The notes under the pieces: model-generated | Database searches by the model: none | Told to the model about the DNA's origin: nothing | Seen by the model: only the letters and a program-made list of their open reading frames with translations | From: Bigelowiella natans CCMP2755 | Taxonomy: Eukaryota; Protista; Cercozoa | DNA length: 64,000 nt | Assembly: GCA_000320545.1 (NCBI GenBank) | Contig: ADNK01001860.1 | Coordinates: 124,001-188,000 of the forward strand | Reading direction: 5' to 3' | Translations under genes and position numbers: made by a program | Shown here: positions 7,518 through 59,772 of the stretch, piece by piece | How the letters are laid out: each line of letters starts with the position of its first letter | Position numbering within the stretch: the first letter of the stretch is position 1

Positions 7518-9540
7518 CAACATCACTGAAACCGCATGAGATTGTGCACACGATGTGTCCGCTTTGTGCATCAAGGTGCATTCATGCAACAACAATGCAC
7601 GCTAGATGTAGCCGTTCTTGCATTGTGTGCACGCGCATGGGATTCGAATTTGAACCATTGTCAAATTTTGTTGGCGCTTGGTTGGTGGGATTTTTGGATG
7701 TCGATGCAGGGAGCATCTTCGAATCGCTTTGTGGACTGCTTCGTGCACACATCAGGTTCTGTCTGGAAATGGTTGGAAACGTGGTCGTGAGCACAGCCAT
7801 CTGCAACTTCGCTCATCAGATGAGTGTGGACTTTCATCACCTTGCTAGCTTGTTTCTTGCGATGGAATTTGACATTTTGGATTTGGTTCGGCTTCAAGGT
7901 TGTCCATTCTGGCTTTGCGAGGACGGTTTCACCAAGTTCCATGCAAAATTTTGTCGTCAACATCACAGATTTCGTCTGCCAAGTTTGCTTCGCTCATCGC
8001 ATCATTGCACAGCTCTGGAGCTCTATAGCTCGCGTTCAAGTCAGAGACACGCACACACTTGTGAGCATGCACTCGGTCTCTTGCATTGGAGTGCCCATGC
8101 TGCAAGTACATTTTCAAGTGCACACGTGGCGTTCATGACTCCACGTGCACCAAACAGTTTGTGCACACGTGTGCACCAGCATGCACCACAGCGGGCAGAA
8201 CGTTCACGTGAATGCATGTGCACTCAATGTCTCATGTCCAGACGTGTCAACAATGTGCACCACACACGAACCATGGTGCATGAGAAGCGAAAGAATTGAT
8301 GTTTTGATCACGCATGCATGCAATGTCAGGGACAGGCACACACTTGCAAAGTGCACTTTGTCTCTTGCTCAAATGATTGATTGACCAAATCGCTTTGCTT
8401 CTGCACGTGCTGATGCCATCACATCGCACCGCAGGCTGCCATGATCGAGTGCATTTTCCCAATGATCCCATCCATCACACGCATCTGTGTTGGGCATCAC
8501 GTTTCGTCTGAACGTGCACGTGAACAACGTGATTCATTGAAACGTGACACCAGCTGACAGCCATCAAGCGAAGCTAGCTCAAACCGAAGGTTTGGCGCTT
8601 CACACCCAACCAACCAGCAATGCACGCGGCAACACAAACCCGTGCCAAGGGGTGAAAGTGGTGACTTCGAGAACGCGCGTTGCCCAATGCATCCACACGT
8701 CAAAGAGAATGAATGGATCACACTTCACAGAAATCGTGAAAGAAAACTTCGATGTTTGCGTCTTGCACGATGAAGATGGACACAGCAATGTGATCATCGC
8801 TGAGCAAGCTCACATCACGACCCGAGCTTCCGCATGTCCACTAGCCATCACATCCTCTTCAACTCACTTCGCACAAGAGCTGCTCAATCTGATCACCATC
8901 GATCCAAGCAAGTTTGAACTCTGCTAAACCCTCCAACGCAGGGTCTCGAGTTGCTCAAGTTTGCAATCATCAGAGGTTTGGAAAAAAGCAAGATGTTGTT
9001 GGGTCACAAAAGAACGAAGATTCCAACAGGGTCTCGAGTTGCTCAAACTTGCAAACGTTGGAGATTGAAAAAAGACAAGGTGTTGTTGGGTTGCAAAACA
9101 GTGAGGATTCCAACAGGGTCTCGAGTTGCTCAAGTTTGCAAACGTTGGAGATCAAGAGAGGTGCACAAATTCTCAGTGCCATTCTCTCAAAATGTTTGTT
9201 TGCATTGGCACAACTAGACAATGGGAAGATCACACCAACTGCCTTTGGTGCAAAACAATTGCGAACATCATCAAGAGCAACAGCGTAACTTCAGGCTTTC
9301 TTTGAAAACAACGTGCCGCGGAGCAAAGGAACAAAGAAACCGGCAAACTTGAAGTGAAGCAGCGAGGATTCGAAGCTGCCACCACTTTGGCCAAAAGGGG
9401 AAAATTTTGTGATGTTGGCCGAGTCTAGCGTGTGCTGTGGCTGCTCCAATGATTAGCCTCATTGTGGGCGATGTAGCTAGCACGCTGACAGGCGCAGAAC
9501 CATGCAAAAATCACATCAATTTTGGCTCAAGTCAAGCAAA
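7518..9540. mobile_element. Degenerate, TpA-eroded repeat- or TE-like island, family unidentified
   Basis: About 11 TA in 7518-9420 (5 in CTAG), very high TG/CA content, His/Cys-rich pseudo-ORFs, and an 87-88-bp tandem repeat inside. No termini recognised, so TE origin is inferred. Confidence 0.55.
8933..9152 (+). repeat. Tandem repeat, 87-88-bp unit, about 2.5 copies
   Basis: CAGGGTCTCGAGTTGCTCAA recurs at 8939, 9027 and 9114, with alignable intervening sequence. Confidence 0.9.
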
Positions 9541-17043: not shown

Positions 17044-18790
17044 TTATTTTTTTTTATCGTTGGCAACAGACGGCGGATTCAAATCCTCAACTCGATAAGA
17101 TTGTGCGACGTCTGTGCAACATGCGAAATACATAAAGGTCAGTAGAGCTAATGTACCGAAGAGAAGAGCAAGAATGGCGGAAATTGCTGAAGGGCCTAGC
17201 CCCATCTCAGCTCCCTCACTGTCATCACCGTTTGTTGCCAAAGACCACAAATTAGCAGTTGTCGTCTTTAGTTCTGAATTAAGTTCGTCACATTGGTCTG
17301 CAACCGTAGCGAGCGCTGACAGGTAAAAAATAATTGACGCGCAGATAGCTGCTATGGAAGAATAGGTCAAGAACTTATGCGCTCTTTCCCCATAGCATGC
17401 TGATGGACAAATAGCATCGCCTAGTACGAGTGCGATCGTAAAGGCAACAACAGGGGCTGTGAGCACGATGGCGACAGATGCAAGTCCTTCTGCGTCAAGC
17501 ATTGCCAACTGACATTTGTGACAAGCAGATGTAGCAACAGAGCTAATATTCGCCACTTGGTTGCTGGCAGCTTCACCAGTACAAGCCAGCAGTGTGTAAT
17601 CCGTTCCATCGATGTTTATTTGCGCGTTGAGATTGGCCCAGTTTTCGCATCTCAAGTCGTCGTATCCGGGAACTCCAATATTCTGGAAGGAGCTCAGTTG
17701 TGGGATGAAGCGTGGGTACCAACAGAACTTAGAGACCCCGTACGAAATGAGGGTGTAGAAGGTATAGCTACGATCTTCGCCTAGAAGCGATGCTGTGCCT
17801 TGGTGCTTTTCAATCGAAGACCAATACCAACTGTGGAAGCTTAGAGATGCAATCGCAAACCCAACGCTAATGCTTCCTTGGAATAACACCAAGAACAACA
17901 ACCATGAGCTTCCCGTAGAGAAGAAGAAGAACAACGCATAGAATAGAAGGGCTCCTATCCCACAAGCAATGGTACCAATTCCCAGGTAGCCAGACGCTCC
18001 TATTTCCATGCTACTATCTGAATTGTCCGCCCCGTTGGTGGTTGCATTCCATATTGAACTTTGAGTTAATGCTAGCTCCTGGTTGTAATCATGGCATTCT
18101 GCTGAGGCGTATCTTAGCCCAGTCGTGTAGCATACTATCGATCCAATCAAGCAAAAAATAGCAATCATGGTAAGGACCTTCTCCCACTTCTCTGGGACGT
18201 TGCCGTGGCAACACTTTGAAAAGAGTATCAACACGCCTACCGGAACTAATCCTACCAATCCTAGCATGGCCCAAGAGACGCCCTCTTCCATAGCTGCGCG
18301 ACACTTTTTGCAATCATCGCTGCTGCTACATTGGGAAAGAGTGTACGTTGTGTCTCCTTGACTAATTGTCGCATCTAGATTGTCCCAATTCTCACAATTC
18401 CAATCTGAGAGCGAAGGAACGCTGATATCTATGTTGTTGTCTAGATCTGGAACGCTTTGGGGGTAGTGACAAAACTGAGTCAGCCCGTACGACACAAGCG
18501 AGTAAAACTTATAGTCGAAGGTGTTTCCGCCTACCGATGCTTGCGAATCATGCTCTACTATCCCGGTCCAATACCATGACTGAACTGCCATAGCAGCTAT
18601 CCCACAAAGAAGCCCAAGAATCAGGAAATTGATCGTAAACGATAGGAAGCACGTCTCGCCCTGCCGTCAATTGTAGGAACGTTTGTCAGACATCCATGTG
18701 CATTTACGAGTAAACAAGACGATGGATATATTGATGCTATCATACCTCACAAATTGCGCAGCATATGCCACAGAAGCAGCATCCACCTTT
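17044..18790 (-). CDS. Membrane protein with two tandem claudin/PMP22-like 4TM modules
   Basis: 515-aa ORF with a clear internal duplication (SWYWTGIVEH..YGLTQFC..CENWDNL..CKKCRAAM / SWYWSSIEKH..YGVSKFC..CENWANL..CHKCQLAM). An upstream exon adds TM1; true start uncertain. Confidence 0.7.
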
Positions 18791-42051: not shown

Positions 42052-42410
42052 AAAGTAACCTGTACCTTATTTGTATGTATTAGGGTGTACATATATAATA
42101 GACATTTAAAGTAACATCATATATAGGGTATATATGGTATTAGACAAAGTAATATCGTATATAGGATATATCTGGTATTACGTGTCTGTAATACATAATT
42201 GCCTATCCTCGCTTATCATAAGACGGATGTAAATATCAATTAAATTTGCTCAATAGTCATCCTTATGTCGTAGCTGTGCAATGCAGCGGCTACCAAGCGA
42301 TCATGGAAGAAGTGCACTGGCATGGTGGCCACGTGAGGCACAATGCTGTGCGAGACGGATGTAATGAAGTGATTAAATGCTGTGCAGATCTAGATAGGCA
42401 TGCATATATC

Positions 42411-44620: not shown

Positions 44621-44919
44621 ATTGAATTGATGTTGCTAATTTACCCCAGCGAGGCATAACCCGAAGGCAGCGAAGCCTATGACAGCGAGGACGAAAATAT
44701 TCACGATGAGCATTGTCGCACGTCTTGATAAGCTTAACTTTGGATATATTCTTGCTCGGGATGATACCCCCCCCCCACAACAGCTCTATCTGGATTCGGG
44801 ATCTCCTTTCTTTCACAGATGATCTCTTGGAGGTAAGAATCGCTGTCAGTTTTGGAATGCGTTTCGGTTGTCCTTTCCATTTCCCGAATGGTTGATTTTG
44901 CGTTGTCGCATGCCGTAAA

Positions 44920-45850
44920 CCCCTTCCGTTTTGATCCCTTCGACTGGATTGCAACCCTTTTGGAAATGTGTTGTTCATCACGTCTGTTCAATTGTTCATT
45001 GCATTGGAATCTTCAATCTTTGTGCAGTCGATCATCAAGTTGCTTTCTTTCTTTCTTTCAGTGTGAGGTCTGTCTTGGTGCCTGGCTCTCCAGAATGCAA
45101 CACACTCGTTGCCTCCATCTCTCTCACAACCAGAGTCCTGTTGGCTAGTTGGATGAGCCCTCAGGTGACTTGCTAGCTTCTAGAGCTTGGACAAGGATCA
45201 CAGCGTCGACAGACGAGTCGTCAGGATGGATGTACTGCGACTTCCCTCTTGACTCTCAGTTGTGCTGCCTACTTGCTGCCATGGACGCCAATTTTGCAAC
45301 GTGCTCTGCTCGTTTTCACACCAGAGCTAGCAGAGAGCTAGGAGTCCTCGTTGTTTTCAGCTCGAGGCACTGCGCGTTTGCTTCTTTCCAGCTTCGCAAG
45401 TGTCATGCAACACTTTGGAAACGTGGTCGATCAGTGAACTTTCTTTCTTTCTTTCTTTGATGCGAAGTTCAATGATGTTCACTGTTCAATGTTCTAGCTT
45501 CTTTCATCACATCGATCCCTTCTTGCCTTGTGTGTGCGACGACATGCATGGTTTGCAGGAGGCATGCAAGGAAGGGCACTGAGCTCGGACGCTGAGACAC
45601 TGCTGAGACCTGACGGACACTAGCTAGCTGGGATTGACGCATGTGCACTCCATTCCGATCCGTTCGGTGCTTGCAAGCGTGTCGCAAACAAACGCACGCG
45701 TGCATTGCACAATTTCATCTAGTCATGGGAACGCCGCACGCACGCACACCATGCACGTGACAGTCCTGACAGCCACAGCGAAAACACGTGAAGATCGAGC
45801 CTACGACACGTGTGATTTTTTCATCGACGCATCTAGGCATGCTAGCATGC
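44920..45850. mobile_element. Degenerate TpA-eroded repeat- or TE-like island
   Basis: About 14 TA in ~930 bp, 11 of them in CTAG. Shares motifs (TCGAGGCACTGCG...TGCAACACTTTGrAAA) with 59033-59190. Confidence 0.55.
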
Positions 45851-46051
45851 TTGCATGCAACCGGTACTAGGGTAGCATGAAAATGCGCGCAACATTGGGA
45901 TGACTATTGAAAAGATTTAATCACTTCATTACATCTCAGAACGTTCATGACCAATTGAATTTTTAAGAACACACAATGATGTAAAGGCTGAGCGTAATGA
46001 TCATCCAGAAAACCCGATTGTTCGATCAGGCCATATCCCAAATGTTGACAG

Positions 46052-55342: not shown

Positions 55343-55520
55343 AGAGATGCGTCAAACCTCTGACACAGATCCGTTATGATTCAATTTGTGCACAAATTTA
55401 ATGTCGAGTTGATGATGCAAAGTATCGAATTCAATTGCTGTTTGTTCACATTGCATTGACTATCCATTGCACATGAGACATCTATCGCATAGCTCGGCGA
55501 CCGTACATCGTATACAGCAT

Positions 55521-56001
55521 GTAAGACGGATGTAATCAAATTAATCAAATTTGTTCAATGGCCATCCTCATATAGCTGTGCAATGCAGATATCACATCGT
55601 CGTGTTGAATCTGTTGGTCTCCGCTATGCTAGCTATGCATGTCTATCATTATGATGTGTTTAATGCAATCAAATGCATGTTGTTTCGGTCTTGAATGGCG
55701 CGCATTTCGCGCAGCAGTGCGTGTTTCCTTCTCATCGCAAGTCAATCTTTTCGTTTCGTCGTCGCGCATCACTATGGCAGTGGGCTGATTATATTAAGCA
55801 GCGTTGATGTGTGGTGTGTGCAATGCTAGCTAGAATGCGCGCTCCGCGCCTGGGCATACTTGGTAGCTATCTAGCTAAACATACACATATATCCTGTAGC
55901 AGAAACCAACAGATGCAACATTAGCGCTGTAGCCGCTGCATTGCACAGCTACATCAGGATGACCATTGAAAAATTTAATTCTTCATTACATTCGTCTCAC
56001 A
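55521..56001. mobile_element. Putative old MITE formed by two inverted copies of the ~80-bp dispersed repeat
   Basis: 55521-55588 is the imperfect reverse complement of ~55936-56001. No clear target-site duplication. Confidence 0.55.
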
Positions 56002-57757: not shown

Positions 57758-58059
57758 GGCTGGAGTTGGGCGACGATAATATCTCCCGAGAAAAAGGTTG
57801 AAACAATAATATCGTCGGGTATTTTCATCATGCGACAAAACTTTATTTCAATCAGGATAGGAATTGCATACTAGACGCTAGTCTTAACGCGCTGTCCTAT
57901 TATTTTAAGATGGCGGAAAAAAAGATATCACGGGATATAATCGTTGTCGCACACAGGATTTATCCTATGAATGTGGAATTGCCTCGGTTAGCTTGTGATC
58001 TTCTTTCTGGTGCTCGAATCCTCTTCGTGTCTTCTGGAAACGTCGATCATCAGTGGTTC

Positions 58060-59018
58060 CAAGGGGGATTCACTCCCCCGGGTTTTGGTCCGTGTCATGC
58101 TCGGAATCCAATCCAAACTTCTTCCGAAGCACCACAGAAGACTTCTGGACGTGTGAGAAGGTCCAGAATTGTCCAGAAAGGGGTGCAAAAAAGTGGATTT
58201 TCAAGGAAAAAAATCGAGGGCAAAAACTTTGGGTGCCGCGGAAAGGGTCCACTTTGCGTGTTGGCTCAAAAAAACATGCTCAGAGGCCGTGTCAACAGCA
58301 ACTCCATCACCTCCAGAAGTTCCACTCCAAAGTTCGCAAAATTGAACGTTTCCGCGCCAAAAAGGTGCTTTTTTTTTGTGGTTTTGACTTTGGTGAGTTT
58401 TCGATGTGTGGCTCCTAGCGGCCTGCACGGTGCCGATGCGGCAATCAATGAAGCTGGATGTGATGCGCGACGCGCAGCTCCAGAGCTGCTTGGGATTGGA
58501 CGCACGAGCAAGACGTGTGGGCACGATGGCGCACACTGGCACACTTTGTGCGTGCGCCCAGCGCGCGCGCGCACGCAAGCACTCACAGCTTCCCACTCTG
58601 ATGCACACTTGTCACTTGATCATCAAATTGAAGCTAGACACGTCGCGACGTCGCGCACGACTGGATGATCGACGCTGCGCACGTGATCAGTCACACACGC
58701 TGGTGCACACATCGATGGGAAGGGCGGGAATGATGAACAATGAATGATGAACAAAGCATTGATCAAATCTGCATGCGCCAGGGAAGTGGGTTGGGCACAT
58801 CTGAGACATCCCAGTGACTCGATGCCAAGAGTTCCGCCAATGTGCATCTTGGGCAATTTCACTGGACACTTTGTGGATGGTTTTTGAAGAAAACATTGAG
58901 GAATTTGAACAAAATTTGCATTTTTTTGGGTGAAATCGAAAAAATTTTCCCGGCTGACGCCGGGGCAAAACCGCCGAGCATGATGCGGACCAAAACCCGG
59001 GGGAGTGAAACCCCCTTG
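58060..59018. mobile_element. Non-autonomous P-element-like DNA transposon (959 bp), TpA-eroded
   Basis: 45-bp TIRs CAAGGGGG(A/T)TTCACTCCCCCGGGTTTTGGTCCG(TG/CA)TCATGCTCGG (58060-58104 / 58974-59018) and an exact 7-bp TSD GTGGTTC (58053-58059 / 59019-59025). CAAGG...CCTTG ends with a 7-bp TSD fit the P superfamily. Confidence 0.9.
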
Positions 59019-59032
59019 GTGGTTCAAAGTTA

Positions 59033-59157
59033 GTTCGAGGCACTGCGTTTCGCACACTGCAAATCTCTTGTTGCAACATTTTGGAAGTGCAGTTTGTCAT
59101 CATTGTTCATTGTGCATTGCTCTTTGTTCGAGGCACTGCGTTTCGCACACTGCAAAT
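59033..59157 (+). repeat. 32-bp direct repeat GTTCGAGGCACTGCGTTTCGCACACTGCAAAT x2
   Basis: Copies at 59033-59064 and 59126-59157. Confidence 0.85.
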
Positions 59158-59772
59158 GCCAGAATGTCTTGCAACACTTTGAAAATGCGCGATCTAGCGA
59201 TGCAGTTCATCATCATTGTTCATTCTAGCATTGTTCAGTTTCTTTCTTTTTCTATGGAACGTTGAATCTTGAATCTCCCCCACATCTACTTGCTCAAGCT
59301 AGCAAGCTAGCAAGCTACACATGCAAGCAAGTTCCACCAGTGTCTGTGGCGAATGGTTCCACTCCATTGCAAGTGGATGCATGCATGGATGGGTACATTT
59401 ACGCACGGACTGCTACGTAGTGATTTTTGGTGCACATATGCATGAGTACACATAGCCGCGCCACTGGTGCATACGGAGGAATTGTAGTCACATGCTAATA
59501 CATGAGAAAAGTAATTTAATAATGTGCCACGAACGTTATTTTGGTGGCGAAATAGTACTACATAGCCATGGACGCTGGGTACACACATGCGCATAATTGC
59601 ATCTTAGCTTTCAGCGGAAATATGCCACCGTCGTCCAATGAATTATGATTTGTCATGAAATATCCTCTTTTCCCCCCCCTTCCGATTCCGAATGGCAGAA
59701 GGCAATGGTGGATCAGAGATGCAACTTACAATCCTCTCCTTCCTTCGATCGACGTGCACATCTTATGCATAT

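Follow-up and report, generated by a model that had tools for sequence, protein, structure and literature searches.

A TA-stripped miniature transposon family in Bigelowiella natans whose TG/CA terminal mismatch probably descends from TA

A short non-autonomous DNA transposon of Bigelowiella natans appears to have lost every TA dinucleotide, apart from those lying within CTAG, to a mutation process, and it is likely to have been amplified after this conversion, as an element without any editable TA. It is located in a window of 64,000 nucleotides, the term denoting here the whole stretch of DNA that was analysed. The terminal inverted repeats (TIRs) of the element disagree at one dinucleotide, which reads TG on the left and CA on the right. 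The explanation that can be put forward with fair confidence is that the founder of the family carried TA in both arms and that a host mutation process directed at TpA changed A to G there before the family multiplied. The arm mismatch is by itself of little weight and the mutation process has already been described in a preprint. What matters more is the rule that no C precedes an edited TA which, if it holds, can be checked against the published mutations and used to test candidate deaminases. A second useful addition, again if it holds, would be evidence that small DNA transposons are within reach of this defence and that a fully converted non-coding element nevertheless spreads. The features concerned are as follows.

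58060..59018 (no strand assigned): MITE-like non-autonomous TIR element of 959 bp, almost TA-free, present in about 16-23 near-identical copies
58053..58059 (+ strand): left target-site duplication, 7 bp, GTGGTTC
59019..59025 (+ strand): right target-site duplication, identical to the left at 7/7 positions
58060..58104 (+ strand): left TIR, 45 bp, starting CAAGG
58974..59018 (- strand): right TIR, complementary to the left at 42/45 positions
58093..58094 (+ strand): TG of the left arm, a putative former TA, common to the family
58984..58985 (+ strand): TG of the right arm, CA in arm orientation, a putative former TA
58415..58418 (no strand assigned): surviving TA in CTAG
58634..58637 (no strand assigned): surviving TA in CTAG
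59026..59300 (no strand assigned): adjacent high-copy, TA-poor repeat in which TA, CA and TG alleles segregate among copies

With the element placed at 58060-59018, the 7-bp target duplication is the longest given by any of the ten boundary choices scanned, and contigs from other copies diverge from the window at 58060 and at 59018. An initial description, with a 5-bp duplication and 46-bp TIRs, was rejected because the other copies diverge at 59018 and the 7-bp duplication fits. An 18-mer from the TIR occurs twice in the window, where shuffled sequences lead one to expect 0.02 occurrences, and the inverted repeat is therefore not a product of chance. The arms are mismatched at three of their 45 positions. 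The TG/CA disagreement was already described in the first-pass annotation, and the letters and contexts that it quoted are those found; a further mismatch at 58068, A against T, is absent from it.

None of the seven long open reading frames that overlap the element has a Pfam match, nor does the one frame from a separate ORF search (0/1), and the element matches no Rfam family. The reading frames presumably owe part of their length to the absence of TAA and TAG stops. The combination of TIRs, a target duplication, no transposase and many near-identical copies is that of a MITE or similar non-autonomous TIR element, for which 959 bp lies in the upper length range, and the TIRs, target duplication and high copy number likewise identify the target of the mutation process as mobile DNA. 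A search of metagenome contigs with the TIR pattern gave no match. Three matches to the pattern in viral contigs were dismissed as chance, since they consist of the short motif only and give no BLAST alignment to the window.

The ends of P-superfamily elements have the motif CANRG, and those of the present element similarly start with CA; literature searches found no printed statement of the P end motif. Galileo, which belongs to this superfamily, generates target duplications of 7-8 bp according to the available text of PMC4168063, and the 7-bp duplication found here, in a single insertion only, agrees with the 7 or 8 bp of Galileo and of the superfamily. The duplication differs from the Galileo consensus, GTANTAC, in all but its outer letters. 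A further difference from the P superfamily is that the element has no transposase, so that the family is not assignable by its defining protein. Taken together, the 7-bp duplication and the CA ends suggest the P superfamily.

The element contains only two TA dinucleotides where 55.3 would be expected, an observed-to-expected ratio of 0.04, together with an excess of CA (83 against 60.7, ratio 1.37) and of TG (87 against 58.4, ratio 1.49). CG is present at a normal level (61 against 64.1, ratio 0.95), and the first-pass statement that TA is gone from the element and CpG abundant is thus accurate. Amongst 1122 overlapping 959-bp intervals of the background, taken outside four TA-poor tracts, the lowest TA ratio is 0.41. 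Besides the element, these tracts are found at about 7550-9430, at 44900-45870 and at 59026-59300. The 70 bp of single-copy left flank (57990-58059) contain no TA where 3.9 would be expected, which may reflect a slight spread past the element.

Depletion of TpA with a gain of CpA and TpG is the pattern of hypermutation in B. natans, where integrated NCLDV and virophage DNA is subject to mutation restricted to TpA (Mettrop et al., bioRxiv 10.64898/2026.01.13.699255, 2026). According to the main text of this preprint, 231 of the 302 nuclear point mutations in mutation-accumulation lines fell in two viral insertions, nearly all of them changing TpA into TpG or CpA at a rate of about 6e-7 per site per generation; the background rate is 3.4e-10, with an AT-biased spectrum, against about 7e-7 for the TpA process. 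The same text reports 124 TpA-depleted clusters genome-wide and, in the TpA-depleted coding sequences, an enrichment of domains of DDE endonucleases and reverse transcriptases, and its authors propose an ADAT2-like deaminase as a candidate. The system described there resembles the present one in that the species is the same or nearly so and TpA is lost to TpG and CpA in the element too. It differs in that the target here is a short, non-autonomous, multi-copy TIR element whose conversion is nearly complete, its TA ratio being 0.04 where the NCLDV region has 0.45. The mean CA/TG gain of the element, about 1.43, is slightly under the 5% cut-off of 1.52 used in the preprint, and its TA ratio is far under the cut-off of 0.43. 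The product of the open reading frame at 17047-18666 is a 100% match to protein P0015, which clusters at 90% with a B. natans protein, the next matches being at 59% (a Lotharella globosa cluster) and 50%. A chromodomain reading frame yielded no taxonomic assignment.

The element is a further example of this already described process, to which the sequence rule is possibly a new addition. Fungal repeat-induced point mutation (RIP) is comparable in that it makes dinucleotide-specific transitions on both strands and saturates repeats. In contrast to the Bigelowiella process, which removes TpA, RIP changes C to T and creates TpA. Since the main target in the preprint is single-copy, its main text does not show homology sensing for the B. 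natans process.

Both of the TA dinucleotides that survive in the element lie in CTAG. Within six mechanically chosen segments CTAG accounts for 21 of 53 surviving TA, against 147 of 3429 elsewhere (p 5e-15), with little or no bias in two of the six that are short (0/4 and 1/6), and within the four hand-drawn tracts it accounts for 23 of 37, against 145 of 3445 outside, the context test covering one 64-kb window. Per kb and relative to the background, TA with neither a 5' C nor a 3' G stands at 0.034, half-flanked TA at 0.113 and CTAG at 2.3. The last figure is a 2.3-fold enrichment, which goes beyond mere survival and for which blocking alone does not account.

The words left behind by the process indicate on which side the protection lies. 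CTG makes up 119 of 796 NTG words in the TA-poor tracts against 1806 of 8695 (p 6e-5), whereas TGG keeps its share (147 of 794 and 1610 of 8696, respectively). As CTG is scarce and TGG is not, the block lies on the 5' side of the TA, reading along the edited strand. The alternative that a 3' G on that strand is responsible was rejected on these two shares and on a change from TTAG to TTGG at 59032. Strand-processive conversion received no support from runs tests (z 0.01, 0.31 and 1.22), with no strand runs of TG or of CA.

These observations can be accommodated by a mechanism in which a candidate adenine deaminase would act on DNA, editing the A of a TA whichever strand carries it. Where a C immediately precedes the TA, deamination would be blocked on that strand, presumably as a property of the enzyme, and because such a C protects its own strand only, CTAG alone would be safe on both. 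The founder copy was probably converted to completion whilst its ends could still be used by a transposase. Amplification of the converted founder, which most plausibly came after conversion, would then have fixed the TG/CA asymmetry. The wider proposal is that the TpA mutator edits the A of ATA, GTA and TTA and not of CTA, with the untouched CTAG a fingerprint of the enzyme, and that a fully edited non-autonomous transposon is immune and keeps amplifying, its mismatched ends a dated fossil of editing; the chances that all of this is correct are about even. The terms CTAG, MITE, terminal inverted, flanking and context have no occurrences in the main text of the preprint, and a literature search at the level of listings and abstract openings gave no paper evidently reporting a CTAG exception. 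The exception, and amplification following conversion, are possibly new, and neither is stated in that main text.

Twenty public runs contain all or part of the stretch. Six of the 24 listed were compared, with marine RNA runs having small shares left out of the copy comparison and with runs X7 and X4 representing one sample. Contigs from the body of the element have a depth of 166.4 in run X10, against 7.09 for the flank, and of 1191-1338 in run X7, against 74.2, giving a copy number of about 16-23, for which depth is a rough guide only. The ratio of body to flank is 23.5 in X10 and 16-18 in X7, a gap that is probably low-depth noise and may reflect a change in copy number. Single contigs of 502 and 324 bases stand at the depth of the body, and the copies must therefore be near-identical. 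In run X15 one contig matches 58060-58331 with no differences, and the right arm has no other letter at the mismatch site. In X10 and X7 every place with G>A at 3% or more is assigned to another position, and none therefore falls at 58094. The young family thus carries the TG/CA asymmetry in common, and the first-pass prediction that TA would be found in the consensus or the youngest copies fails. Indeed, the result comes close to an asymmetry fixed in all copies, which the annotation had regarded as evidence against its own reading.

A fixed asymmetry, in a family with several end variants (including those at 58999-59000 and 59010), could also arise if the two arms came from different subfamily members, or if the ends had been selected to differ for the binding of transposase, in which case no common ancestral dinucleotide is needed. 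This is very improbable, as it leaves an exact TG against CA in a TA-stripped element unaccounted for, and even for recombined arms TA would be the simplest source.

An origin from TA in both arms leads to the question of whether any TA allele persists at the site. All arms were aligned onto the right arm for an allele count at 58984-58985, where contigs with G>A at 58985 against those with T>C at 58984 number 16/13, 17/14 and 14/13 in the three DNA runs (3/3). A separate comparison gave 9/8 for X7, 8/8 for X10 and none for X15, an excess in one of three runs, and in no run does T>C exceed G>A. The excess of G>A is suggestive of the pattern expected of a TA allele, from unphased allele tables in which a net TA excess can conceal CG copies. 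Contigs that start at 58980-58981, 4-5 bases before the site, add a depth of 388 in X7, 430 in X4 and 587 in X3, and by way of the end filter these might raise the G>A count, such that part of the excess is possibly an artefact. Amongst raw RNA reads of run X23 from a diverged subfamily, one of two minus-strand reads has A at 58985 without C at 58984, and depth bins place the TA allele in the middle of its read; two plus-strand reads from that subfamily carry TG. This single TA read may stem from an error in sequencing or from a subsequent reversion of TG to TA. Evidence at the site for a direction from TA to TG/CA thus consists of one raw read and a small net contig excess, which are suggestive and no proof.

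The textbook route to a TG/CA pair is a CG ancestor, with deamination of methyl-cytosine leading to TG in one arm and to CA in the other. Some loss of CpG has occurred in the vicinity. The adjacent repeat has CG/CA differences at 59046-7 and 59077-8, with G>A at 59047 reaching a depth of 2223 of 10173 in X10, and A>G at 59078 being found in 15 contigs against 2 for C>T. CCG/CGG is depleted in the pooled TA-poor tracts, at a ratio of 0.61 to the background, with other CG contexts unaffected, and is perhaps a separate methylation footprint. The CG/CA polymorphisms and the CCG depletion mean that CpG loss is not nil, and the AT-biased background spectrum given in the main text of the preprint would also favour a CG origin. 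The element itself does not display the CpG depletion expected of methylation decay, its CpG content being normal, and the CpG positions of the TIRs are intact, three of three in each arm (6/6). The lack of any run in which T>C exceeds G>A at the mismatch also speaks against a CG ancestor, which is a most unlikely origin. A literature search for methylation data on B. natans gave nothing usable among the matches listed.

TA in both founder arms is the likely ancestral state of the mismatch, a view that follows from the TpA-to-TpG/CpA hypermutation reported for the species, a process that is not itself new. This part of the first-pass reading stands as the likeliest origin, in that the process is measured in the species, its footprint is found in the element and a TA allele is suggested by one raw read and a net contig excess, even though the consensus and the young copies are without TA. 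The mismatch is flanked by G before and T after, and would be open on both strands under the context rule. Independent mutation of each arm, as the annotation had supposed, is not required. Both sites are TG on the plus strand, and one A-to-G episode on one strand is sufficient; one episode or two would do.

It is also conceivable that both arms were once TG (or CA), that one arm became TA through an ordinary transition and that the TpA process then resolved it the other way. As starting states TG and CA outnumber TA about threefold, a new TA is quickly removed, and the arms differ at 58068, a non-TA site, so that ordinary changes have occurred; the TA read in X23 could be such an intermediate. 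This route requires the slow background mutation (3.4e-10 against about 7e-7 in the main text of the preprint) to strike exactly that base, and the TG/CA double mismatch is a recurrent one, with three more instances separating repeat copies within TA-poor tracts. A rough calculation, based on assumed rates, puts TA in both arms at 0.70-0.90, a transient one-arm TA at 0.10-0.22 and CG at 0.002-0.105. The one-arm route is unlikely, and a founder with TA in both arms is preferred.

The repeat that directly follows the element provides a further view of these alleles. Over 59026-59240 its summed depth in X10 is about 10,000, against 7 for unique DNA, it is present in RNA reads, and its copies carry TA, CA, TG and CG alleles, which make it well suited to a phased study of the mutation process. 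Raw reads with TA are found at 59053-4 (C>T in 71 reads, A>G in 14) and at 59090-1 (24 and 7). TA alleles at 59096 and 59077 were rejected, as they are outnumbered by the partner change.

The other TA-poor tracts show related features. The 1.9-kb tract at 7550-9430 has 12 TA, 6 of them in CTAG, and its reading frames have no Pfam match; it includes an 87-bp tandem repeat (8932-9152), and two TG/CA double mismatches distinguish the copies of this repeat. In the tract at 44900-45870, where the repeat at 59026-59240 has a diverged relative, 12 of the 17 surviving TA are in CTAG. A second inverted-repeat element is found at 55520-56001, with arms of about 107 bp that are 79% alike and TGT ends, and fragments of it lie at 1449-1530 and 42219-42305. 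It retains its TA (32 against 37.9 expected), which means that not every repeat has been wiped of TA, and 4 of its 19 arm mismatches set TA against TG/CA.
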